From contig CAWGMQ010000006.1 in assembly GCA_963823665.1 (NCBI GenBank), positions 1,728,001 to 1,792,000 on the forward strand: a stretch of DNA of 64,000 bases. The letters run 5' to 3'. This DNA is from an uncultured Planctomycetota bacterium. Lineage in GTDB: Bacteria; Planctomycetota; Planctomycetia; Isosphaerales; Isosphaeraceae. A program made the translations under genes and the position numbers. Shown here in pieces: positions 23,089 through 38,594 of the stretch. How positions within the stretch are numbered: position 1 is the first letter of the stretch; each line of letters starts with the position of its first letter. The notes beneath the pieces are model-generated. The model did no database searches. It had not been told where the DNA came from and was given only the letters and a program-made list of their open reading frames with translations.

Positions 23089-24134
23089 TGACCACCTCCC
23101 CGACCGCACGGCTGCTCAGGGCTTGCCACGCGAGCAGGTTGATCGACTGCTTGATGAATCGAACCGATCCGTCACCCATCAAGACATTCGCCCCACTCGG
23201 GTGCAGCGAATAAAACTCATCCGTGTGACCGAGCGGGCTATTGGGCGGATGGATCACCTGTGGCGACTCGTAGAGCGACGGACCGCTATGCGAGGCCAGA
23301 ATCGCGCCCGGATAGTCATAGTTAATTCCGGCCCCGCCCGTCCCGGCGCTGGCAAACGCGTTGTAGGCGAAATGCCGGTAACCCGGAATAATCCCCACCC
23401 AGCTCGCGTCCGCCAGGTAGGGCGTCTTCTCGCTTGCGAAAACCGTATTGCTCAGGCCGTCGGTCACGCCCGCGTAGCTTACGTGGCTGTTCCGGTAGAT
23501 CGGCCCATTGCAACCCAGAATCGGGTCATCATAATTGGTGGCCGCGGGCTGAATGCTCGTGTCGTTCCAGCCCATGTTGTACTGATAGTTGGCGCGGGCG
23601 AAGTACTGGTTCGCCACCGGAAGCAGGTTCACGTTGGCGTCGACCATCATGCATGTCGCGGTCGGATTATTGGCCGACGGGCATAGGAACACATTGATCT
23701 GAACCGCGACGACGGTGCTGTTGGCAGCGACCCACGTGGGAAGATTGAAATTGGTCGCGCCATACAGCGGCGCCTGCTCGGCGTATGGCAGCAGCATCGC
23801 CAGCCACCCCCACCCTGGCCCCTGATCCATCGTGAATGGGTCCGGATTGTAGCCCGGCACCGCCAGCGACGAGGGCAGCGTCGCGCCGGAAAGCGCAGTT
23901 GCCGCTGCCACAAAGGCTGACGTATCCCGGCACGATACAGCCAACCGCGGTCTCATAATTGGCGATCGCCAGCCCGATCTGCTTCAGATTGTTCGTGCAC
24001 TGGGCCCGCCTCGCAGCCTCTCGTGCATTTTGCACGGCCGGCAAAAGCAGCGCAATCAACACCGCGATGATGGCAATCACCACGAGCAGCTCGATCAGCG
24101 TGAAAGCCCTGGAACGCATCGCGCGGTCTGCCAT
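23072..24134 (-). CDS. DUF1559 (prepilin-type N-terminal cleavage / H-X9-DG) protein (frameshifted near 23880-23930)
   Basis: [69 protein letters not shown]. Confidence 0.95.
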
Positions 24135-24622: not shown

Positions 24623-26579
24623 ATGCTGCACGCAACAGTGCTCGCAATTGTCGTGGCAACTTTCCCTGCCGATGGTGCGTCCGGTCCAACAGCGGCCGAT
24701 CGGAAGACGTATGAGGCGGTGCGGGTCAAAGCCGGCCAGAATCCAGCGGCTCTGGTCAAGCTGGCACTCTGGTGCGAAGCTCACGGTTTGACAGTCGAGC
24801 GCGGCAAGCACCTCATGGAGGCCGTCGGGATCGATCCGGCCAATACCGCGGCGCGAGGGCTGCTCGGGCTGATCTCCTATCGCGGGGATTGGCTCTCGCC
24901 TGAGAACGTTCACGCAAAGCGAGAATCCGACACAGAGCTGGTGACGAAGCTCGAAGCATATCACGCGCGGCGCGCGGACCTTGACGCCCTGCTCCGATCC
25001 AAAAAGAACGACTCGAGCCGCCCTCCGCAAAGCCGCGCTGGCTCACGAGAAGCTGGGAGCCTGGTGCGAGCAGCAGGCGCTGAAGGACGAGGCGCTCGCG
25101 CATTTCACGACGGCCGTTCAGTACGACCCGTATCTCGATGCGCCCTGGAAGCGTCTGGGGTACATCAAGCGTCACGGCCGCTGGATGACGCGCGCGAAGA
25201 TTGCCGCAGAGGAACAGGAAGCGGCCGCCCAGCGCAAGGCCGACCGGTACTGGGAGCCGCTCTTGCGAAAATGGAAGAGCGATCTGCGCGAACCGAGGCG
25301 ACGGCAAGAGGCGGAGAAGTCGCTGGCGATGGTCACCGATCCACGCGCGGTCCCGTCGATCGCGCGCAGCTTCGCCGGCGGCCCGCCCGACGATCAGTTG
25401 AGAGCAAGCGCGATGCTGGGGAGGATCGATGCTCCCGAGTCGACCAAGGAGCTGGCCCGCCTCGCGGTCTCGAGCGCAGCGGAACCGGTGCGCAAAAGCG
25501 CGATCGAGGCCCTGAGAGACCGCGAGCCCCGTGACTACGCCGGACTTCTGATTGCCATGATTCCCCTACCCGTCGAGTACAAGCTGCAGCCTGTCCGAGG
25601 GCCCGGGTCGCAAGGTGCCCTGCTCGTCGACACCCCCCGGTTCACCATGCTGCGCACCTACGACGCACCGGTCGCTTTCACACTGGCGAGCTCATTTCGG
25701 GGCGCCGTGACGGTTGATGAATCGGACGGCATGCCCATCGTGTATCGGGGCGTCGACCTGGACGCGATGAAATTGTTGAATCCGCAGAATCAGATGCTGA
25801 AAATGCGTGAAGTCAAGGCACGGACGGCGCAGCTCCTGTTTGACGCAAACCTGCAGGCCGTCGCCGCGCAAGAGCAGTTGATGGCCGACGTGGGTGCGAT
25901 CGAGGAGTTTAAACTGCAGGCGGCGGCCGCGAGCGAGCGAGTGTTGCCGATTCTTCAGCAGGCGGCACTTGCACCCGCTTCGAGTACCGATCAAGACAGC
26001 CTGTATCAGTGGTGGTACGACCGCCTCGGGTACAGCTACCAGCCCCCGGAAAAAGTGCAGGCCGCGGTGAATGTATTCCCGGAGACCACACCTCCCAGCC
26101 TGACGACGTGTTTCGCGGCCGGGACCCAGGTGCGAACGATCGAAGGGGCACGGCCAATCGAAGAGATTCGCCCCGGTGATCTCGTTCTGAGCCAGGACGT
26201 CACGACCGGCGGGCTCGAATTCCGACCCATCGTGGTCGTTCATCACAACCCGGCGAACCAGACGCTCCGGATCACTCTGAATAACGACGAGATCCTGGCC
26301 GCGAGCATCTATCACCGGTTCTGGCGTCCGGGCGAAGGCTGGGCACAGGCGCGCGAGCTGAAGCCTGGAGACGTGCTGCGAGCGCTCGGCCGTACACTTC
26401 GGGTCGTCGCCGTCGAGCCGGGAGCCGTTGAGCCGCTTTATAACCTCGACGTCGCCCAGAATCGGTGCTTTTTCGTCGGCGAGGGCAACGTGCTGGTCCA
26501 CGACAACACGCTGCCGCCGGCGCGGCAGGCACTCTTTGACGCTCAGCCCGATCTGAGCCTCGCCGGGGGAGGGCGCTGA
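24623..26579 (+). CDS. Secreted helical-repeat protein with C-terminal HINT (pretoxin/intein-like) domain, paralog 1 (frameshift near 25020)
   Basis: Signal-peptide-like N-terminus; two WC..L...DP...LG...G.W repeats; HEAT-like region; HINT from CFAAGT (26109) via SIYHRF and YNLDV to LVHDNT. Confidence 0.85.
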
Positions 26580-26701: not shown

Positions 26702-28615
26702 ATGTTGCACACCGCGTTTATCGCAATCGTCGCAACCATTTTCGCTCCTGACGACACCTCCGGTCAGGCAGCGGTCGACCGAAAGACGTACGAGGCCGTT
26801 CGCGTCAAGGCCGGCCAGAATCCGGGGGCGCTCGTCAAACTTTCGCTCTGGTGCGAGGCTCACGGCCTCACGGCGGAGCGCAGCAAGCACCTCATGGAGG
26901 CGATCGGGATCGATCCGGCCAATACGGCGGCGCGTGGGCTGCTCGGGCTCATTTCTTATCGCGGAGAATGGCTCTCGCCCGAAGAAGTTCGAGTCAAACG
27001 AAAATCGGATGAGGAGCTTGCGCGGAAGCTCGAAGAATACAACGCACGGCGGGCCGAGCTCGATGGCGCGATCAGGAGTAGAAAGAACGACGCAGGCGGC
27101 CGGCACAAAGCTGCGCTGGCACACGAGAAGCTGGGCGCCTGGTGCGAAGAACAGGGACTCAAGGACGAGGCGATCGCCCACTACACCACGGCGGTTCAGC
27201 TCGACCCCTACCTGGATGCGCCGTGGAAGCGTCTCGGGTATGTCAAACATCACGGGCAGTGGCTTTCACGCGAGAATCTCGCCGCCTTCGAGCAGGAGAC
27301 GGCGGCGCAGCACAAGGCCGATCGGCACTGGGAGACGCTGCTGCGCAAATGGAAGGTCGAGCTCGGCGAGAAGAAGAGGCGGAAGCAGGCCGAAGAATCA
27401 CTGGCGGGGGTAACCGACCCTCGAGCCGTTCCGTCGATTGCGCGGATCTTCGGCAAAGGATCCTCGAGCGACCAGTTGACAGCGGTGACGATGCTCGAAC
27501 GAATCGAGGGCCAGGCGTCGTCAAGGGAATTGGCTCGCCTCGCCGTCTTCGGCGATTCGCAGGACGTGCGTGACGCGGCGATCGCCGCGCTCAAGAAGCG
27601 CGAGCCGCGCGACTACGTCGGCGCCCTGATCGATCTGGTGCAGTTCCCCGTGCAATACAAGGTCCAAGCCGTGACCGGGCCTGGATCTCGCGGCGGTCTG
27701 CTGATCGACACTCCGCGATTCAGGCTGCTGCGCACGTATAGCGCGCCGGCGGCGTTTCACCTGACATCGAGCTTCCGCGGCACCGTCGTTTACGACGCGG
27801 ATGGCATGCCCGTCCCGTACCGCGGCGTCGAGCTCCAGCAGATGAGTTCCATGAAACCGGCGCAACAGGTCGCGAAGGAGTTCCAGATCGATATGCGCGC
27901 AGAGAGATGATGGCAGAAGCAAACCTGAAAGCTGCCGCCGCGCAGCAGCAATTGATTGCCGATGTCGGCGCGATCGAGCAATTCAATTTCCAGGCTGCCG
28001 CGATCAATGAGCGCGTCTTGCCGATCCTTCAAGAAACCGTCGGCGCGCCCGCTACCAGCACCGACCCGGATTCACTCAACAAGTGGTGGTACGACAAGCT
28101 CGGTTACAACTACGAGCCGCCGCAGCAAGTGCAGGTTACTCAGAATGCATTCCCGCAGCTTCCGCCTCCCACCCTCACCACGTGCTTCGTGGCCGGGACG
28201 CCGGTGCGGACGATGGAAGGTTTCCAGCCCATCGAGAAGATCCGCACGGGCGACCTGGTGCTCAGCCAGGATATCACCACCGGCGCGCTCGAGTTCCGAC
28301 CGATCCTGGTTGTTCATCACAACCCTCCCAATCGCACGCTGCGGATCACGTTGAGCGACAAGCAGGTCCTGGTGGCGAGCATTTACCATCGGTTCTGGCG
28401 ATCGGGAAAGGGTTGGGCCCAGGCGCGCGAGCTCGAGCCCGGCGACATGCTGCGATCGCTCGGCAGCACACGTGCGGGTCGTTTCGGTTGAGCCGGGATC
28501 GGTCGAGCCGCTCTTTAACCTGGACGTCGCTCAGAATCGTAGCTTCTTCGTCGGCAACGGCAACGTCCTGGTCCACGACAACACGCTGCCGCCAGCGCAG
28601 CCACGATCGCTTTGA
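26702..28615 (+). CDS. Secreted helical-repeat protein with C-terminal HINT domain, paralog 2 (frameshifts near 27905 and 28470; end approximate)
   Basis: Colinear and similar to paralog 1; CFVAGT at 28183; LVHDNT at 28568-28585. Confidence 0.85.
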
Positions 28616-28764: not shown

Positions 28765-31700
28765 GTGCACTGGGCTAGCCTGGTCCTCTTCGCGTGCGTT
28801 CAGGTCGACGGGCCGCCACCGCACGCGGAGCCGCTGCGCGGCGTCGTCGTCGACTCTGCCGGCAAGCCGCTTGCCGGAGTGGATGTCTGGCTTGTCGACC
28901 GGATTGTCGCCGACGGGCGAGCGGCCGTCGATTGGCGGAGTGTTGTGGATGGCGGGTCGTCGGGCTTCTCTCGCCGAATTGCAGGCCACGCTTGCGCACA
29001 CGCGAACGAACGACGGCGGAGAGTTCGGCCTCGAGCTTCCCGCGGAGGTCGTGCGAGCCAGGAGCCGATGCCGGTGGCAATCTGGGCTCACGCTGCGCGG
29101 CGGTCGCGTTGCGATGAAACGATTGGCGTCGGCGATTCCCGCGCCCGACCGGAACCGATTCGCCTCGTGATCGAGGAGCCCGGGCACGCGGGCTTCCGGC
29201 TGCTCGGTCCGGACGGCGCTCCGCTCGCCGGTGCCCGCGTCGTGCCAATCGCCTTCGCCCAGACCGCGGTGCCGCGTGAGCTGGCGGAGAAGGTCGGCTC
29301 GGTGGCCGGAGACGACGGGGTCTGTCGTTCTTCCGGCATTTGCACCAGGAGAACTGCGCTGGGTTCGCGTCGATTCGGCGACGCTGGCACGCAGATCATT
29401 CGCACGCTGGGATCGGATACGACGCAGGACAACGCGAGTTTCGGCTCGAGCCTGTCGGTCGCGTATCGGGCCGCGTGGTCACCGACGCCGAGGGCAGCCG
29501 GTCAGCGGGCCTGCGGTGCGGGCGGAAACGCTTCCCGATGGATATGACCTGGGCGGCACGCTGGGAGCTGGCCACGTCACGACCGATGGGAACGGACAAT
29601 TCGAGATTCCGGCGATCGCCGCGGGAGGGTTGTCGCTGGTGCTCGAGCTGCGATCGCGTCCCGACCTTCCGTTTCGCGGTTTACCTCCGGCCAATCAGGT
29701 CGTCGAGGCCGGCCGGACCACGACGATTGGAAATCCGGTTGAAGCGGGCAGTGCACATCGAAGGCACGATCCGTGAGCGGGCGACCGGCTTGCCGATCGC
29801 CGGCGTGAGCCCCCAGATCCCCGACTGGCCTGGCGAGCTGGGGGGTAATTCCAGGGTCGTGACCGATGCTAGCGGAAGGTTCGAAGGATACATGGAAGGC
29901 GCAACAGCCTTACGCTTTTCTTTATTCGACGCCCAAGCCGTATTTTATCCCCGAAACTCCGGACACCTTTCATTTGCTGCCCGCGGGTGCCACCGAATTC
30001 AAGCTGCCGCCCACCGAATTGGTGCGAGGTGAAGCGCTAGGGGGCTCGGTGGTCGACGAGTCGGGTAAGTACGTCTCGGGCGCGCTGGTGCGGGCCTCCT
30101 GGGGCGGCGACGAGAATGTGCTCCAGTCGGTTGCCGTCCGGACCGACTCGAGCGGGCGCTACTTGCTCGAGGGGCTCGACCCGCTCGTTGATTTGCGGCT
30201 CACGGCGGAAACAGACGGGCGGAGCTCGGGCGCTGCTGTCACGGCACGGGTAACCGGCGGATAATGAGGTCAAGCTCACCGTCAGCCGGACAAATACGGT
30301 CGTCCTTTCCGGGCGCGTGGTCGACTCAGCCGGAAGGCCGGTCGAGGGCGCCCTGGTGCGGCTCCAGTCGCAGACCCGCCGCCCCGAGGGACAGACGTGG
30401 CGCACCGACCCGGTGTTCTTCGCTGAGCAGACTGTGCTGCACACGGCCGCGGATGGGCGATTTCAGACTCCCAGCGGAGTGCCTGCTGGCCTCGAGTACG
30501 AGGCATCCGTTACTGCTCCGAATGCGCCCCCGGGCCGGACCGGTCGTGCTCAAGACCGCCGGCGGTCTGGCGGCGGCGTTTGCCGACGTTGTGCTGCACC
30601 GCATCCGAGCCGTCGACGGCTTCGTGCACGACCGCCAGGGCAAGCCGGTTGAAGGCGTCACCGTGTTCCAGTCGGGAGACGGCCCGATGCGCACGCGGAC
30701 GCTCACCGATGCCCGCGGACGATTTCGACTTCCAGGGGTGATCGCAGGCAAGGCGATTCTCTTCGCGCGAAAGGACGGATTTCGCTTCCATGGTCAACCC
30801 GTCGACACCGAGGCGGGCGCGGCGGATCTGACGCTTGCGCGAGTCGAGGAGACCACGCCACTCATGAAAACGCTTGATGGGGCTGCTCGCACGTCAGGAA
30901 GAGCTGACGGTTGCTCGACGGCTGCTTGCGCCCTACGTCGAGAAGATCATGTCCAGGGGCACCGATGTGCAGAAGGTCCAGTGTTCACCGTCCTGGTGCA
31001 GGTGGACCCGGCCCGTGCACTCGAGCTGCTCGACGCAAGCTCCGCCGGCAAGCCGCAGTTTGCGGTGGACAGCTTACGCAGCAATGGTCGCTACCGCGAT
31101 GGCGAGCCAGAGCCCCGACGAAGCCGTCAGCATCGCGGAGGCGATCCACGACTCCGGCTCGCGATCGTGGTGTCTTGACCGACCTTGTTGAAAAGCTTGC
31201 CCGCCTCGGCCGGCGGTCGCAAGGCCGAGCTGCTGGCTCAATCGCAATTGCAAGCGAATGGTGTCAAGCAGCCCGGTATGCGAATCGGGCTAATCGCCCG
31301 CATCGCCGAGCGCTGGCTCGACCTGGGAGAAGAAGAACGGGCGACGGCCTTGCTCGACCAGGGGCGGTCGCTCGCCAAGGAAGTGCCCGCACCGGCCTAT
31401 GAGCTCACAACGTTTGCCGAGGCGCTTGCCCGCATCGACTTGAAAAGCGCGCTTGCGCTCGTCGAGAGCACCAAGAGCCTGGCCAAACGCGGCGACAGGG
31501 TTAACCGCGTCTTCGTCTTCGACCGCGCTTACGGCGAGATTGCCTACCGCGTCGCCGCACGCGATCCGGCCGGCGCCGAAGCCGCGCTGGGCTTGATCGT
31601 CGACTCCCACCGCCGCGGCGGATACGTTGTCGCGGCGTGCTCGCGGATTGTTCTCAAGGACAATGCTCGCGCCCGCCGGCTTGTGGAAACGATCGAAGAC

Positions 31701-32303
31701 CCGATGATCCGAGCTTATGGCCTGGGCAAGCTGGCGCACGCTGCTGGCGAGTACGGACAGGCCGTCGGCGATCGGCTTGCTCACCGAAGCGTTCAAGCGG
31801 CTGGATGAATATCGGGATGACCGGCAAGGTTACTCATCGGCCGATTCCGTGGCTGCGGTGTTACTCGAAGCTGTCGAGGCGGTCGACCCCGCGCGGTTGC
31901 AGGAGACGGTCTGGCGCGCGATCTCGCTACGGGCACCCTTGTTCGACACCCGGGGCGACGGTGTCCTCGGCCGATCTGCTGCCGAGCTCGCCATGAACAT
32001 CGCCCGCTATGATCGGGCCGCCGCTGCTGCCGTGCTGCGCGGGCGCTCGATGCTTTTCAAAAAACTGATGTTGATGGCTTGCGCCAGGGTTTCGTTGCGA
32101 TGGCGGAAGCGCTCATCGACCCTGCCCGGGTGGTGTCGCTGGTCGAGTCGCTGCCCGAGGAGCCGGGACTGGATCGCAATCTCTCGAAGAACGCCGCGCG
32201 ACTGTTCGCGGCGGAGATCCTGGCCAAGCAGGGCAAGGAACGCTGGCAGGCGGTGCGCAACTGGGGCATATCGATCTGGAAGCCGGAAGGGAGCGACCTT
32301 TGA
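28765..32303 (+). CDS. Large secreted protein with several carboxypeptidase-regulatory-like (Cna-B/prealbumin-like) domains and a helical C-terminus (many frameshifts)
   Basis: Recurrent G.VVD..GKP..GA.V and TD..GRF.L motifs in successive frames; signal-like N-terminus; ends GISIWKPEGSDL. Confidence 0.7.
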
Positions 32304-33678
32304 GCCGTTTCAGGAAGATCGCGGCGTGTTTTTTCGTCCTGTTCGGTTTTGCCCACGACGAGCGCCCGAGCCATCGAAGGCTGGCGGTTCGTTCTGCCCG
32401 GCCCCGGCGATCCCTTCGAACACCCGCCGATGCGGGCCCTCGCTCTTTCGCGTGCCAAGCCCGAAGATCTGGTGGAGAAGGTCCGATACCGCGGAGCGCG
32501 CCAGCGATATGCCCAGATCCGCTATGGCAGCCCCGGTTCGATCCGGATCACGGTTGTCCTCGACGAGGCGTCGTCGAGCGATGTCGATCTCTACGTTGAC
32601 GCGGATCGCAACCGGCGCATCGAGGCCAAGGACCGACTTGCCGGCAAGGACCGCACGTGGCGGATGCCGCTTGTCCGTGGCGGTGGTCGAGGGTGAGACG
32701 ACGAAGCTCATCCCGCGCGCGGCGATCTTCCGGCTCGGCGCCACCGGCGTGACCTTCAGCTTTGCCGCCGCGGGGTACCTGGAGGGAACGGTGAGCCTGG
32801 CCGGAGGCACGCACACCGCGCGACGAACCGACGGCGACGGCAACGGGTTTCTCACGGATTCCCAGGACAGGCTCTGGATCGACTCAAACGATGACGGGCG
32901 ATGGGACCCTGCCGACGAACAGTTCCTCTATTCCTCGCTGCTGGTCGCTCGGGCACGACCGATACGCTGTGCGGTCGGACGAGCTGGGCACGCGCCTTGC
33001 CTTCGAACGTGTGGATGGTGCTGGAATCGTGAAGTTGAAGCTGAGCCGCCCGGCGGAAGTGCGCCGGTGACCGAGGCGCACGCGACCTTGCTGGGCCGCG
33101 ACGGATCGGCCGTGGGATTAGGTGGTGACGCGGAGGGCATGACCGTGCCCGCCGGCGAATACCGGCTCGGCACTGTGTCGCTTTCGTTTGACGACCCGCA
33201 GGGCGGGCCGAGATGGAGCTTCATCTTTTCGGACAACGGCGGCACGAGCCGACCACAAGTGGCACCGGGTTCAGAAAGGAAGCACCGTCGAAATCGACCC
33301 GGTCGGAAAGCTGGTTCTCCAGACGAGCCTGGAAGATGAAGCAAAGAGCTTCCCGGCCGGAGACGACATCCCGCTCCAGCCGAGGCTCTACACCGGCGAC
33401 GGCCTTCTGATCAACACGTGTTTCCGCGGCTCGCCGACCTCGCCCGGCGGCCACGACGGGGCCGCCGCCGACATCACGCTGAAGGCAAGCGCGTCGCAGG
33501 CGCTGGCCGTTGCGACGTCGGGCTTTGCCTGAGGCACGTTCTGCCCGGCCTCGGTCCGAGTGCCACAGTTCGCAGCGGCCAGGACGAGCTCGTCCTCGAA
33601 GTCGAATTTGATTCCGGGCCGCTTGCGGGGATGCTGCGAGCGCGTACGACGGTGAATGTGATCGAGCCGAAACCGTGA
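32300..33678 (+). CDS. Secreted protein with Dx[DN]xDG Ca-binding loops and a candidate selenocysteine (TGA 33530-33532, U-G-T-F-C); frameshifted
   Basis: TTG overlaps the upstream TGA. LYVDADRN, DGDGNG and WIDSNDDGRWD loops; SGFA*GTFCPASVRVP, then coding-like ELVLEVEFDSGPLAG...IEPKP* in the adjacent frame. Confidence 0.6.
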
Positions 33679-33866
33679 CCGCGCGATTGCGCCGCACGTG
33701 CGGTAAGTCGCGGTTTCCCAATTGCCACCGGCGGCGGCCGAGTCGGATGAAAGGTTGTAGCACTCTGAAGCGGTCAAGGATCGACGCGTGCTTGACCGGA
33801 GTCGGAAAACCGGCCACAATGCTTTGTGGGAATTGATGTTGAGTAGCAAGAATGTTGCAGGTGACC

Positions 33867-34256
33867 ATGAACACGAAGAGCGGCGCAACACGGGAGATTG
33901 GTGCCGATGGGGGACCGGACCCGCTCGAAACCGAGTTTGCGGGCTCGATCGTCGCGAGCACCGAGCCGGAAGCTCTAACGTCGTCACTCTTGAGCCGATT
34001 CCCGCTGCCCGAGGGTATCCGAAAGTCCAAGGACGCCTTTTTCCGCGACCTTGCCGACTTGATTGGCGACCCGTCGCTCAGGGGCAAGTGGGTTGCGTAC
34101 CATGGAGACCAGCGAATTGGTATCGCTGCTGACGATGAGCCGTTGATCGATGAGTGTCGTCGCCGCGGGCTCGCGGCAGACGAGTACATCATTGAGACCA
34201 TAGAGGCGAAGCCCGCCGCGCCTGAGCAAATCGAATTTCCGCTTTCGTGGAAATGA
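33867..34256 (+). CDS. DUF5678-like small protein
   Basis: AFFRDLADL...GKWVAYHGDQRIGIA..E..LIDEC.RRGL. Confidence 0.65.
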   Translation: MNTKSGATREIGADGGPDPLETEFAGSIVASTEPEALTSSLLSRFPLPEGIRKSKDAFFRDLADLIGDPSLRGKWVAYHGDQRIGIAADDEPLIDECRRRGLAADEYIIETIEAKPAAPEQIEFPLSWK

Positions 34257-34747
34257 ACATCATCGATCGGCAACCCTTCCTCGACGTCCCCTCACGGGTG
34301 CCTAGCCCTGGTGGGGAGTCGATCGTGCGGGCGTTTCAGGTGGCGGTGCGAGTCGGTTTATCCGGCCGAGATGTGTTCGCGCCATCCGGCACCTCTTTCC
34401 CGGCGATCCTCGACACGGGGCTTAATCACAATTTCGCGATCCGAGAGGACCAACTTTCAAGTTGGACCGGGCTCATTCTGCCGCGAATCGGTTTGGTCGA
34501 GGTCGACAGTAACCTGTTTCCGCTGGTCGCAGCTAACCTCTGGATCTACGGAAATAACCCCGGCGAAGACACGATATCTGATGCTCCGCCCTTTCGCTTC
34601 CGGCTTGCGGAAGGCATTATCGTCTATACGGCCCAGACCGCAAACCCAGCTCGGCTACCAATACTGGGGTTGCGAGCCATTGCGACGAATGCGTTGCGGT
34701 TCACGATTGATGGTAAGGGACGTAACGCGACGTTGGCGACGTCGTGA
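34253..34747 (+). CDS. Retropepsin-like aspartyl protease
   Basis: AILDTG catalytic motif and PILG motif; ATGA overlap with the upstream gene. Confidence 0.75.
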   Translation: MNIIDRQPFLDVPSRVPSPGGESIVRAFQVAVRVGLSGRDVFAPSGTSFPAILDTGLNHNFAIREDQLSSWTGLILPRIGLVEVDSNLFPLVAANLWIYGNNPGEDTISDAPPFRFRLAEGIIVYTAQTANPARLPILGLRAIATNALRFTIDGKGRNATLATS

Positions 34748-34792: not shown

Positions 34793-36209
34793 TCAGCTCA
34801 AAATCGCCTTGATCACATTGCCATCCACATCAGTCAGCCGGAAGTCGCGGCCGGCGTAGCGGTACACCAGCCTGGTGTGGTCGATCCCCAGGAGGTGCAG
34901 GATCGTCGCGTGGTAGTCGTGCACGTGCACGGGGTTCTCGACGATCGTGGCCCCGAAGTCGTCGGTCTGCGCCGAACGTGCAGCCCCCCTTCACTCCCGC
35001 GCCGGCGAGCAAGGCCGTGAATGCCTTGGCGTAATGGTTGCGCCCCTGGGTTCCTGTTGCGTCCGTCCACGGAGTCCGGCCAAACTCCGTGCAAATGGCA
35101 ACGAGCGTCGAGTCAAATAAACCACGCGCTTTCAGATCTTTAATCAGTGCCGCGATCGCGCGGTCCACCCGCAGGGCCTTGGGGCGGTGCTCCTGCATGT
35201 TGCCGTGCGCGTCCCAGTTGTTATTCGACCCGGTGTCGATCAGCTCGACTACCCGCACGCCCTTCTCGATCAGCCGGCGGGCGACCAGGCACTGATATCC
35301 GAACGATGTGGTGTCGCCGGCGGAGACTCCGTACGCCTGGCGCGTTGCTTCGGTCTCGCGCTCGGCGTCGAGCACCTCGGGCGCCTTGCGCATCATCCCG
35401 GCGGCCACATCGTAAGTCGCGATCCTGGCGCGAAGGTCGGGATTGCCCGGGCGGATGGCGATATGCCGCTCGTTCACGTCGCGCAGCATCAATCGCTCGA
35501 GCGCATCGAGCGAGAGCGACTGTTCCTGGGGACGAAGGTCGGGTATCGGTTGCGGACCCGGCACGATGCGCACTCCCTGGTGGATCGGCGGCAGGAAGTT
35601 GCTGTCCCACACCTGACTGCCGGCATAAGGCAAGTTCTCGCAAAGAACCACGTAGGACGGCAGTGCGGCGCACTCGGTGCCCAGACCATAGGAGAGCCAC
35701 GCGCCCAAGGAGGGCAGCGGCACCGTGGCCGAGCCGGTGTGCATCGCCAGCACCGCCTGGAAATGCTCGACGATGTCGGTGTGCAGGCTGCGGATCACGC
35801 ACAGATCGTCGGCCAAGGCGGAAAGGTGAGGAAAGAGCTCGCTGATCCAGAGGCCCGATGCGCCGCACTGGCGAAACCGGAACGGCGAGCCCAGCAGCGG
35901 GCGCTTGCCCGTCTCGTCGCTCCCGAGCCCGAACGACGGGACCGGCTGGCCATGACGCTCGTTGAGGGCAGGTTTATAATCAAACGTGTCGACGTGTGAA
36001 AAACCGCCGGTCAGAAAGATCACGATCAGGTTCTGGGCCTTCGCCTCGTGGTGGGCGGGCCTCGGTGCCAGCAGACCGCCGCCATTTTCTTCGGCCGCCA
36101 GCAGGAGCGCATCGCGCAGGCCGGGGCCGGCGATCGCGGCGGAGCAGACGGCTTGTTTCAAGAAGCCGCGCCGGGCGATCAGCGATCGATTCGACATGTC
36201 TGGTTTCAT
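34793..36209 (-). CDS. DUF1501 domain protein with Tat-like RRGFL signal (frameshift near 34965)
   Basis: [32 protein letters not shown]; true C-terminus [21 protein letters not shown] ends at 34793. Confidence 0.92.
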
Positions 36210-36216
36210 CACCCTG

Positions 36217-38594
36217 TCAATCGACATAGAGAAACTCGTTGGAAGTGAGGATCACCTTGGCGAGGCTCACCCAGGCGAGGCGTTCGACGTCCGGTGCGGA
36301 CGCTCGCGTCTGCCGCCAGGGCCTGTCTTGCAATCCGATAGATAGCGGACTGCCCGCTCGACCTCGTCCGGCTCGGCGGGGCGCCCCCACGCCAGCTCAT
36401 GGGCGGCCGCGATCCGCGTTTGATCGTCGCCGGCGCCTGCGATCAGGCGATTGGCGAACGCGACCGCCTGCTCGTGCACGAACGGGTTGTTGCGCAGGTA
36501 GAGGGCTTGAAGCGGGACGGTCGATCGCGTCCGCAGATCGGTCGACGCGTTGGTGTCGGGCCCGTCGAAGATGGCCAGGAACGGGTGCCTCACCAGGCGC
36601 TGGGTCATCATGTAAACGCTGCGAGAGTGAGTGGGGTAAACCGCCTTGAACGGATTGTGCTGGGTCCAGTGCCAGTCGTGGATCGCCGGGAATGGATGCG
36701 GGCCGGGCCGGGCTCGTTCAAGCCTCCCCGCCACGGCCAGCATCGCGTCGCGAATCGACTCGGCGGCCAGCCGCGCCGGAGGAAACCGCCAGAGCCAGCG
36801 GTCATCCGGGTCGCGAGCCTGGCTCGCGCTGTCGGTTTCGCTCGAGAGCTGATATGTCTCCGAGAGAAGGATCTCCCGGTGCAGCCTTTTAATGGACCAG
36901 CCGTCCGATACGAACTTCGCGGCGAGCCAGTCGAGTAGCTCGGGGTGAGTGGGCGGTTCGCCGCGCACGCCGAAGTTGGACGGGGTCGCCACGATCCCCC
37001 GCCCGAAATGGTACTGCCAGATCCGGTTCGCCATCACGCGGGCTGAGAGCGGATGCCCGGCTTGCACCAGCCAGTCGGCGAGCTCGAGCCGGCCGCTGGC
37101 GGTGTGGCCCACGGACCGGGCCGGCTCGGCAGCCAGGAACGCGAATCGCGGTACGCCACGGGGCACGACGTCACCCGGCGCCGCTGGATCTCCTCGTCGT
37201 TGAAGCGGCACATCCACGGGCGATCCCTCACCCACGGCATAGCAGCCGGGAACGTCCGCCGGCAGCGACGCCCTGCGCAGCTTCGACCACTCGGCCCGAA
37301 GCTCGCCCATTTGCTTCTTCGATGCCGCGTCGCTCCTGCCCTCGAGCGCTTTCGCCTCGCGATCGAGGACGGCCAGACGCCCCTCGTAACGAACGAGCTT
37401 CGCCTTGCACGCTTCGGGCGGCGCCACCGGCACGAAATTCATCCGCGGGAATGACTTGGATTGCAGCTCTTCCGACCCGGCGTAGGGAAACGTGGTGCTG
37501 GCGAAGATCCCGTAGAGCGCGTAATAGTCGCGCTGGGTGACGGGGTCGAACTTGTGGTCATGGCACCGCGCGCAGCGCAGCGTGAGCCCCAGAAACGCCC
37601 GGCCGGTCGTGTCGATCGTGTCTTCCAGTGTCAGATGCCACAGCTCAAACGGCGCGGTGGCGTAACGGCGCGAGAGGGCGAGGAACCCGGTGGCGATCAC
37701 CGACGCGGCGTAGTTTTCCGCGGGTCCGTTCCGCGCCAGGATGTCACCGGCCAGTTGTTCGCGGACCATCCGGTCGTACGGCTTGTCGGCGTTCCACGAG
37801 TCGATGATGTAGTCTCGATAGCGCACGGCTTCCGGGATGGGGTAGTCGGCGTTGTCGCCGGCGGTGTCGGCATAGCGGACGACGTCCATCCAGTGCCGCC
37901 CCCAATGCTCGCCATAGTGCGGTGATGCCAGCAGACGATCGACGACCCGCGCGAATGCATCAAGTGATCGATCGGCCAGGAAGTCGGCAATCTCGCTCGG
38001 TTCAGGCGGCAAACCGATCAGGTCAAACGTCACGCGTCGAATCAAGGTTTTCCGGTCGGCCCGCCGGACCGGTGAGAGCCCCGCCGCCCGGCGCCTGGCC
38101 GCGATGAAGCGGTCGACCGGCGTCGACGACGGGCCCGTGGGATCTCGCGGCGGGTCGACGCTTTTCACTTTCTGAAACGCCCAGTGAAGCCCGGCGACCT
38201 CCTGCGCTGGCGGTTTCCCGCCGATCGCCTTGGGCCACGCTGCCCCGCGTGCAACCCATTCCGTGAACGCGCTCACGACCTCCTGCGCCAGGGGGTTCTC
38301 GGGCGGCATCTTCAGGTCTTCGTCAATCCGGCGAACGGCCTGGATCAGACGGCTCTTGGCGGGGTCACCCGGGACGATGGCGGGCCCCCGGTCGCCGCCC
38401 CGCAGGAGCGACTGGCGCGAATCGACCTTGAGCCCGCTGCTGGTCTTCTTCCCGCCGTGGCACGGAAGGCACTTTGTGACGAGCACCGGGCGTATCTTCA
38501 ACTCGAAGAATGTCTCCGGCGTCTCGTCTCCAGCGGCTGAACTCGAAAGGGCGAGCGCGGCGAGCAGGCCGATCGACGCAAAGAGTCGAGCCAT
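36217..38594 (-). CDS. Planctomycete cytochrome c / DUF1549 / DUF1553 (PSD1) protein (frameshift near 36300)
   Basis: CLPCH and CARCHDHKFDP heme motifs; YGEHWGRHWMDVVRYAD; PTHPELLDWLA; C-terminus SNEFLYVD* at 36217. Confidence 0.93.

Follow-up and report, generated by a model that had tools for sequence, protein, structure and literature searches.

The 64,000-nucleotide stretch analyzed here (contig CAWGMQ010000006.1 of assembly GCA_963823665.1, positions 1,728,001 to 1,792,000; hereafter the window) originates from an uncultured Planctomycetota bacterium of the family Isosphaeraceae. Its plus strand carries a gene for a putative exported selenoprotein (32300..33678, ca. 455 codons by alignment with four orthologs; intact homologs have 450-510 amino acids) and, upstream of it on the same strand, a larger gene which we call the partner gene (28765..32303, ca. 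1,170 codons). The partner gene is broken by indels; its product was read by three-frame translation and its start was deduced. The selenoprotein gene likely starts with a TTG codon (32300-32302) that overlaps the TGA stop codon of the partner gene (32301-32303), and the sequence contains a purine-rich stretch resembling a ribosome binding site at 32285-32293 (+). The junction of the two genes consists of a stop/start overlap or a short gap in the homologous loci as well, and the gene order and spacing suggest that translation of the pair is likely coupled.

Towards its end the frame reads S-G-F-A, then TGA (33530..33532, + strand), then G-T-F-C-P-A-S-V-R-V-P with a cysteine four residues after the TGA (33542..33544, +), exactly as in the initial annotation, which was made by a model from the sequence alone and proposed that the UGA encodes selenocysteine (Sec, U). 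A protein-like tail that includes F-D-S-G-P-L-A-G follows in a different frame and closes at a second TGA (33676-33678). Where a single indel had been assumed before this tail, alignment revealed two inserted bases, 33570 and 33584, which set the Sec codon and the tail out of frame. Compared to the four orthologs, the window has extra bases at 32343, 32671, 32945, 33247, 33570 and 33584 and lacks one base after 33048, which places five of the single-base indels upstream of the Sec codon. Because the frame of the gene changes repeatedly, the open reading frame ending in SGFA is only the last piece of a gene of ca. 455 codons. Contigs of relatives, obtained in other sequencing runs, lack or restore bases near 32341, 32670, 32946 and 33054-33063. 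The genes adjoining the selenoprotein gene are broken in the same manner and the seven indels are therefore likely errors of a long-read assembly; none of the sequencing runs searched for the source strain contains it (best share 0.14). The same genome harbors a second copy of the selenoprotein gene (L008:1774-1908 plus flanks, on contig C3), which is 47% identical in its last domain, has the same TGA and downstream hairpin, and is flanked on both sides by partner-like genes. The Aquisphaera insulae copy (L056:9210-9225) shows a frame shift in a run of C directly after this hairpin, with the tail motif going on in another frame; an assembly error, slippage and a pseudogene are all conceivable there.

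Homologous sequences were collected in several overlapping sets, the counts of which are not additive. A scan of species genomes used two patterns, one demanding Cys at the Sec column and the other demanding the tail motif, so the resulting set of 59 loci is unbiased toward TGA, yet selected for a conserved tail. The Sec column holds TGA in 52 of these loci and Cys in five, the remaining two being tail-only remnants. The Cys loci, read at the DNA level, use the codons TGC or TGT and stem from Pirellula and Pirellulaceae. According to their titles, the 59 loci are from Isosphaeraceae, Pirellulales, Gemmatales, other Planctomycetota and two Abditibacteriaceae. The latter two genomes (L066, L070) form a long branch outside the Planctomycetota and possess the TGA, the hairpin, the partner gene and tRNA-Sec. 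In the two remnants (L081 and L082, both Isosphaeraceae) the last 33 residues are kept and the Sec region is gone, as expected for what is left of a deleted gene. Among related genomes the gene occurs in 11 of 61, and all 15 matches have one TGA, placed at the column and followed by 39-57 conserved residues, which greatly exceeds chance expectation. A metagenome search with a pattern that permitted any TGN at the column but fixed the hairpin returned TGA in 62 of 62 matches (50 distinct). Within the family of the window, 34 of 121 genomes possess the gene; TGA is present in 46 of the 50 matches, counted without verifying its position in the column for each match singly, and the other four comprise the tail only. 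The distribution across the phylum is patchy, since only 4 of 401 genomes in an even sample harbor the gene. The family profile matched 861 representatives at 50% clustering, fragments included, and of the best 150 of these, 115 break off immediately ahead of the column, three read on with Cys and the other 32 are fragmentary, frameshifted or aligned over a short part.

In the full-length alignment rows, U and C are the sole invariant Sec/Cys columns. The Cys is found in 54 of 54 TGA loci and in 48 of 48 full-length rows, and the U-x-x-x-C spacing is common to all aligned rows. A D-S-G-P-L-A-G loop past the Sec codon (33610..33630, +) is invariant or nearly so in 32 rows and in 48 rows, some of the loci having been selected on that motif. 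Comparison of five orthologs (mean column identity 78%) showed that the 38 nucleotides at 33527-33564 are the sole invariant run of more than 12 nucleotides. Mapped on a quickly built tree with 54 rows, the Cys label requires four changes, one of them forced by strong branches, which is compatible with repeated replacement of Sec by Cys in these sequences. The comparison with homologs suggested in the initial annotation thus returned TGA or Cys at the column, and conservation for 40-55 residues beyond it.

One alternative holds that translation really stops at the TGA, or that the assembly is wrong at this point, and takes the tail for a small gene of its own, for a remnant or for chance sequence. 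In its favor are the many indels in this copy and the gene callers that end the protein there (the 115 of the best 150 representatives mentioned above). Against it, the TGA recurs in 52 loci from two phyla, short-read metagenome-assembled genomes and isolates among them; a sequencing error at the TGA itself was ruled out by this conservation. Moreover, the Cys forms are one continuous frame, the exchange of Cys and TGA contradicts termination at this point, the conserved G-T-F-C precedes any possible start codon of a separate gene, and the structure model requires the three strands of the tail to form the last domain. We regard termination or error at this position as hardly credible.

The codon is followed by a bacterial-type selenocysteine insertion sequence (SECIS) hairpin at 33547..33564 (+), located 21 nucleotides after the UGA, with a stem of seven pairs, one bulged U, an apical G-U-C loop (33554-33556) and a folding energy of -7.7 kcal/mol. 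The initial annotation had also placed a SECIS hairpin 3' of the UGA, built on pairing of GGCAC (33533-33537) with GTGCC (33560-33564). These segments are indeed complementary, but this outer stem is absent from minimum-energy folds and shows no covariation among 51 distinct homologs (358 of 500 shuffles scored as high), and it was rejected in favor of the inner hairpin. For the latter, 54 TGA loci were compared, 51 of them distinct over 39 nucleotides. For the core pairs C-G, U-A and C-G, each of the 153 cells is paired; two of these three pairs have changed on both sides (in two and three sequences), and so has the pair closing the loop in three further sequences. None of 500 shuffles reached the covariation score, a control that is inflated by relatedness of the sequences; a slide by -1 scores higher in covariation but pairs only 47%. 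RNAalifold returned the same hairpin core. The compensatory changes alter amino acids, converting S-V-R to F-V-E, T-V-R or P-V-R, and synonymous sites are constrained as well: CCG is used in 27/27 cases, GCC in 43/43, CGA in 49/51 and GTG in 47/52, at background frequencies of 0.54, 0.50, 0.14 and 0.32, respectively. All four core pairs are intact in 54 of 54 TGA loci (with the loop G-U in 53), in none of the five Cys loci and at none of 228 upstream control sites, the structure tested having been derived from the same TGA set.

The window hairpin lies within all published limits of the bacterial SECIS (bSECIS) model when examined with our own script. As summarized in PMC13188914, these are a loop of 3-9 nucleotides, a stem of 4-16 base pairs, a G in the first two loop positions, a spacing of 16-37 nucleotides and an energy of at most -7.5 kcal/mol. 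A looser fold-based test was passed by 47 of 54 TGA loci, but also by 76 of 228 controls, and the folding energy of the window sequence compared to shuffles is uninformative (z -0.8 to -1.4). Among the 1,951 TGA triplets in the window, two are followed by such core pairs. The second one (62631, minus strand) lies in a repetitive region in a frame full of stops and was dismissed as a chance occurrence.

The genome itself encodes the machinery for which the initial annotation had recommended a search: selA (503.6 bits), selB (364.1), selD (381.1) and tRNA-Sec with a TCA anticodon (75.2) all score above the curated cut-offs. Within the window's family, tRNA-Sec was detected in 31 of 34 genomes bearing the gene as compared to 50 of 87 genomes without it, and it is present in 11 of 11 further TGA-type genomes, which were reached via their loci, and in 0 of 4 Cys-type genomes; related genomes in these counts are not independent. 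These results also bear on the idea that the UGA stands for Cys or Trp instead of Sec, decoded by a special tRNA or under an altered genetic code, for which one may cite a Trp record in the databases (P0158) and the existence of Cys homologs. Many of these genes, and the partner gene, ordinarily terminate with TGA, so a genome-wide change of the code was ruled out. Furthermore, the sole TCA tRNA examined is a canonical tRNA-Sec, accompanied by selA, selB and selD, and the hairpin both matches the bSECIS model and is lost in the Cys forms, which makes such a reassignment highly improbable. By sequence comparison, the gene agrees with bSECIS-decoded bacterial selenoproteins in every feature that can be tested: an in-frame UGA, Cys homologs, selA, selB, selC and selD in the genome and, 21 nucleotides downstream, a hairpin whose small apical loop contains G-U. 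The initial proposal of a Sec codon is thus supported by the TGA in 52 and Cys in five of the 59 loci together with the conserved downstream sequence, and the TGA at 33530-33532 is very likely read as Sec. None of the refuting conditions in the initial annotation that were examined came true.

The predicted product starts with a signal peptide for the Sec secretion pathway (32300..32372, +) consisting of a basic start, a hydrophobic core and an A-x-A end, interrupted in the window by the extra base near 32343. A simple hydropathy test, used here instead of SignalP, detected a signal-like hydrophobic segment in 121 of 124 family rows and in 115 of 650 control windows; the twin-arginine motif was found in none of the rows and a lipobox-like sequence in four. 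We therefore consider it very probable that the protein is exported via the Sec pathway, as the initial annotation supposed. As to its suggestion of calcium binding, the N-terminal beta domain contains three loops of the Dx[DN]xDG type (32598..32919, +) that are conserved and are putative sites for Ca2+ or a lanthanide; residues D100, D183, N187, D192, D195, D200, D204 and E212 are conserved at 87-100% in 130 rows. The likeness of these loops to lanthanide-tag and EF-hand constructs is weak (E 0.12-0.52). The N-terminal domain is predicted to be stabilized by Ca.

Structure models suggest that the protein consists of three all-beta domains, with U and C at a hairpin turn of the last one, a macroglobulin-type, immunoglobulin (Ig)-like beta-sandwich (33293..33678, +). 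The confident models contain only beta structure around the Sec site and no thioredoxin helices. The last domain shares 14% identity with a macroglobulin domain, and since numerous unrelated Ig-like domains score within 1-2 Z, the fold itself gives no function. A fold search with the whole protein gave no overall match (best TM-score ca. 0.25) and barely covered the two N-terminal domains. Searches of PDB sequences returned nothing below E 0.1, Pfam gave no match above the cut-off for the selenoprotein (A2M included), and NCBIfam release 20 produced 0 matches for eight proteins at E 0.1 and only scattered weak matches for 32 C-terminal domains. The matches in the ESM Atlas are unnamed clusters only, one with GEVED on 38% of its members. 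The N-terminal domain was not seen with a Pfam domain in the best 120 of 270 matches; any link of this domain to TlpA-fused proteins is conjectural.

The partner protein is predicted to start with a signal peptide; CarboxypepD_reg (transthyretin-like) repeats follow, and a helical solenoid of ca. 440 amino acids forms its C-terminus. Pfam PF13620 matches both the window partner piece and intact homologs, and both partner profiles match the window. No homology was detected between the Sec domain and the solenoid. Homologous partner genes comprise 900-1,670 codons and lie upstream of the selenoprotein gene in most loci and downstream in Pirellulaceae-type loci. The solenoid profile, built from 21 of the 49 matching loci, matches 49 of 58 loci, and seven of the nine misses have less than 2.7 kb of upstream DNA. 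The coupling to a large carboxypeptidase-regulatory-like protein envisaged in the initial annotation thus extends, at the level of prediction, to an adjoining CarboxypepD_reg-repeat gene in 49 of 58 loci, and from this gene arrangement the selenoprotein and its partner probably, though with considerable reserve, form a two-subunit extracytoplasmic module. More than one CarboxypepD_reg-repeat gene surrounds the selenoprotein gene in L034, L035, L024-L026 and L066.

Signalling heads are fused to either protein in some homologous loci. Six loci contain a BlaI gene followed by a BlaR1/M56 head that is fused to a Cys-type protein (L072, L073, L075 and L076) or to the partner (L048:2633-7892 and L071:2288-7608), and in another locus the partner carries an extracytoplasmic function (ECF) sigma factor head (L046:3263-7936). 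The M56 fusions on the selenoprotein side that were read at the DNA level are Cys forms in four of four cases; three M56-type fusion proteins (P0129, P0137 and P0149) end at the TGA column. The operon pieces in the window show no M56/BlaI or ECF-sigma head. BlaR1/M56 and ECF-sigma heads may merely be shuffled onto many planctomycete surface proteins.

A mechanism can be proposed on the basis of established bacterial Sec insertion. SelB would bind the hairpin and deliver Sec-tRNA at the UGA, after which some 45 further residues would be made that are needed to close the last beta-sandwich. The full-length protein would then be exported by the Sec pathway, with Ca loops in its first domain, and pair in the periplasm or on the cell surface with the co-translated CarboxypepD_reg/solenoid protein. 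There a substrate bound to the partner may present a disulfide, peroxide or electrophile that the selenolate attacks, with the Cys resolving the intermediate as a selenenyl-sulfide, and the pair would cycle between selenol/thiol and selenenyl-sulfide on the substrate or signal bound by the partner. Taken as a whole, the interpretation that UGA is read as Sec in an exported protein whose Sec-x-x-x-Cys pair is a reversible redox site outside the cytoplasm is the one we favor, by a modest balance of probability. The extracytoplasmic redox cycle taken singly is plausible, somewhat short of an even chance, and it rests on analogy because UxxxC on an Ig-like fold has no catalogued precedent.

Several observations speak against this interpretation. 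The absence of a precedent just mentioned concerns the 119 families catalogued in PMC13188914. The window copy is frameshifted after the SECIS and could be a pseudogene. In one database protein (P0158) the column is occupied by Trp; a member of the same 90% cluster terminates at the TGA position instead, and the Trp is therefore likely a miscall. tRNA-Sec was not found in 3 of the 34 gene-bearing genomes, these three having a completeness of 60-79%, and many genomes of the family possess Sec machinery in any case (81 of 121). The Cys-type genomes are not cleanly Sec-negative, as one (G064, contig C36:35637-36995) has selA above the cut-off, with selB and tRNA-Sec not found, and another (G062, contig C139:4-681) a partial selB only; incomplete assemblies or decaying Sec systems could account for this. 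With regard to the module, two loci (L050 and L054) lack a partner despite 9 kb of upstream flank. No conserved reductant gene was found, and no Cys of the partner is universally conserved, the best column, in the solenoid, reaching 12 of 21. A partner Cys as universal redox partner was therefore rejected: its conservation is insufficient, and it is missing in many TGA-type loci.

The main rival of the redox role accepts recoding and assigns U and C to the ligation of a soft metal or metalloid such as Cu(I), Hg(II) or As(III), which would be trapped, delivered or sensed outside the cytoplasm. Sco/SenC copper chaperones, which bind Cu(I) through a CxxxC motif and a His ligand on a thioredoxin fold, likewise have two chalcogen residues in a loop with three residues between them, but their fold and His ligand are not seen here. 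No His, Met or third Cys is conserved at 80% or more in the alignment rows, and genes for metal transport or resistance do not recur among the examined neighbor clusters, only some of which are annotated. We consider metal ligation unlikely, if still worth serious attention. Third comes a fixed bond: Sec would be inserted as a structural or attachment residue, in a Se-S bridge that locks the hairpin or in a covalent link to the partner. The scaffold-type fold, as in adhesins, S-layers and macroglobulins, and the solenoid Cys of many partners (12/21) fit this proposal, but many TGA-type loci have no partner Cys, and by far most lineages retain Sec along with a SECIS under strong constraint, a costly solution where Cys would suffice. 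A fixed bond accordingly appears improbable.

Because signalling heads of two kinds occur in the fusions, a sensor is still conceivable. In lineages with a BlaR1/M56 or ECF-sigma head on either subunit, the redox reaction proposed above would constitute a signal. In the sensor reading, a Sec-Cys switch carried by a macroglobulin-type domain would, together with the solenoid partner, report the redox, electrophile or soft-metal state outside the cell, in some lineages driving BlaR1/M56 proteolysis or an ECF sigma factor. This sensor function is speculative, and we judge it rather doubtful. Among known transducers, BlaI/BlaR1 (M56) and ECF-sigma systems with CarboxypepD_reg extensions resemble the homologous loci in their heads, which the window operon lacks; unlike in BlaR1, the sensor part is not a penicillin-binding domain.

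Some thioredoxin-fold selenoproteins with UxxC or CxxU motifs are extracytoplasmic. This group (Trx, Grx, DsbA/DsbG-like proteins and UGC forms of TlpA) likewise has Sec near an invariant Cys, whereas the protein described here has three instead of two residues between U and C and, according to the model, an all-beta sandwich. With alpha-2-macroglobulin and complement C3/C4/C5 it shares the predicted macroglobulin (MG)-type domain fold. Those proteins consist of a ring of MG domains with a thioester domain and exceed 1,400 amino acids, whereas here a single MG-like domain occurs in 455 amino acids and a thioester domain is absent. None of the 119 families in Table 1 of PMC13188914 is listed with UxxxC or with a macroglobulin or Ig-like domain, a comparison that covers the motifs and domains given there. 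The main texts of PMC13188914, PMC13326102 and PMC12013277 do not mention planctomycetes. As described in PMC13326102, that study searched known families only, and both Aquisphaera genomes are in its genome list. Literature searches yielded nothing relevant on the motif or on Sec in these organisms; the family could be among the entries of Haft and Tolstoy 2025 or of Deng et al. 2026, the latter reported to list novel candidates that lack validation. By the comparisons made, the sequences represent a selenoprotein family not described before, whose motif and scaffold are both new.

The surroundings of the two genes in the window are as follows. Directly upstream of the operon lie tandem paralogous genes (24623-26579 and 26702-28491, +), both split by indels, whose products are predicted to carry signal peptides and have helical repeats followed by a Hint domain at the C-terminus (PT-HINT, E 1e-12), and before these a DUF1559 prepilin-type gene (23667-24134, minus strand). 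Downstream, two small overlapping genes (33852-34256 and 34247-34747, +) have no Pfam match at 1e-5; the second contains an ILDTG motif and is presumably aspartic-protease-like. A sigma-70-like site is located at 33792-33820. The minus strand at 34830-38594 carries a DUF1549/DUF1553/PSCyt1 and DUF1501 gene pair typical of planctomycetes.

The family is sizeable and systematically mis-annotated: in public records the protein stops one residue short of the site that is most conserved. Neither the Ig-like scaffold nor the UxxxC spacing has a counterpart among the Sec proteins now catalogued, and here they occur in a planctomycete protein with predicted export. For the bSECIS model, the covarying SECIS, in which base pairs are kept at the cost of amino acid changes, provides clean data from nature. 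Cultured carriers are Aquisphaera giovannonii, with two copies that stop at the column, A. insulae and Saltatorellus ferox; because such hosts exist and the Cys forms found in nature need no Sec machinery for their expression, both the recoding and the chemistry are directly testable. If the sensor function were true, the protein would be a signal-transduction selenoprotein on a fold without described redox chemistry.
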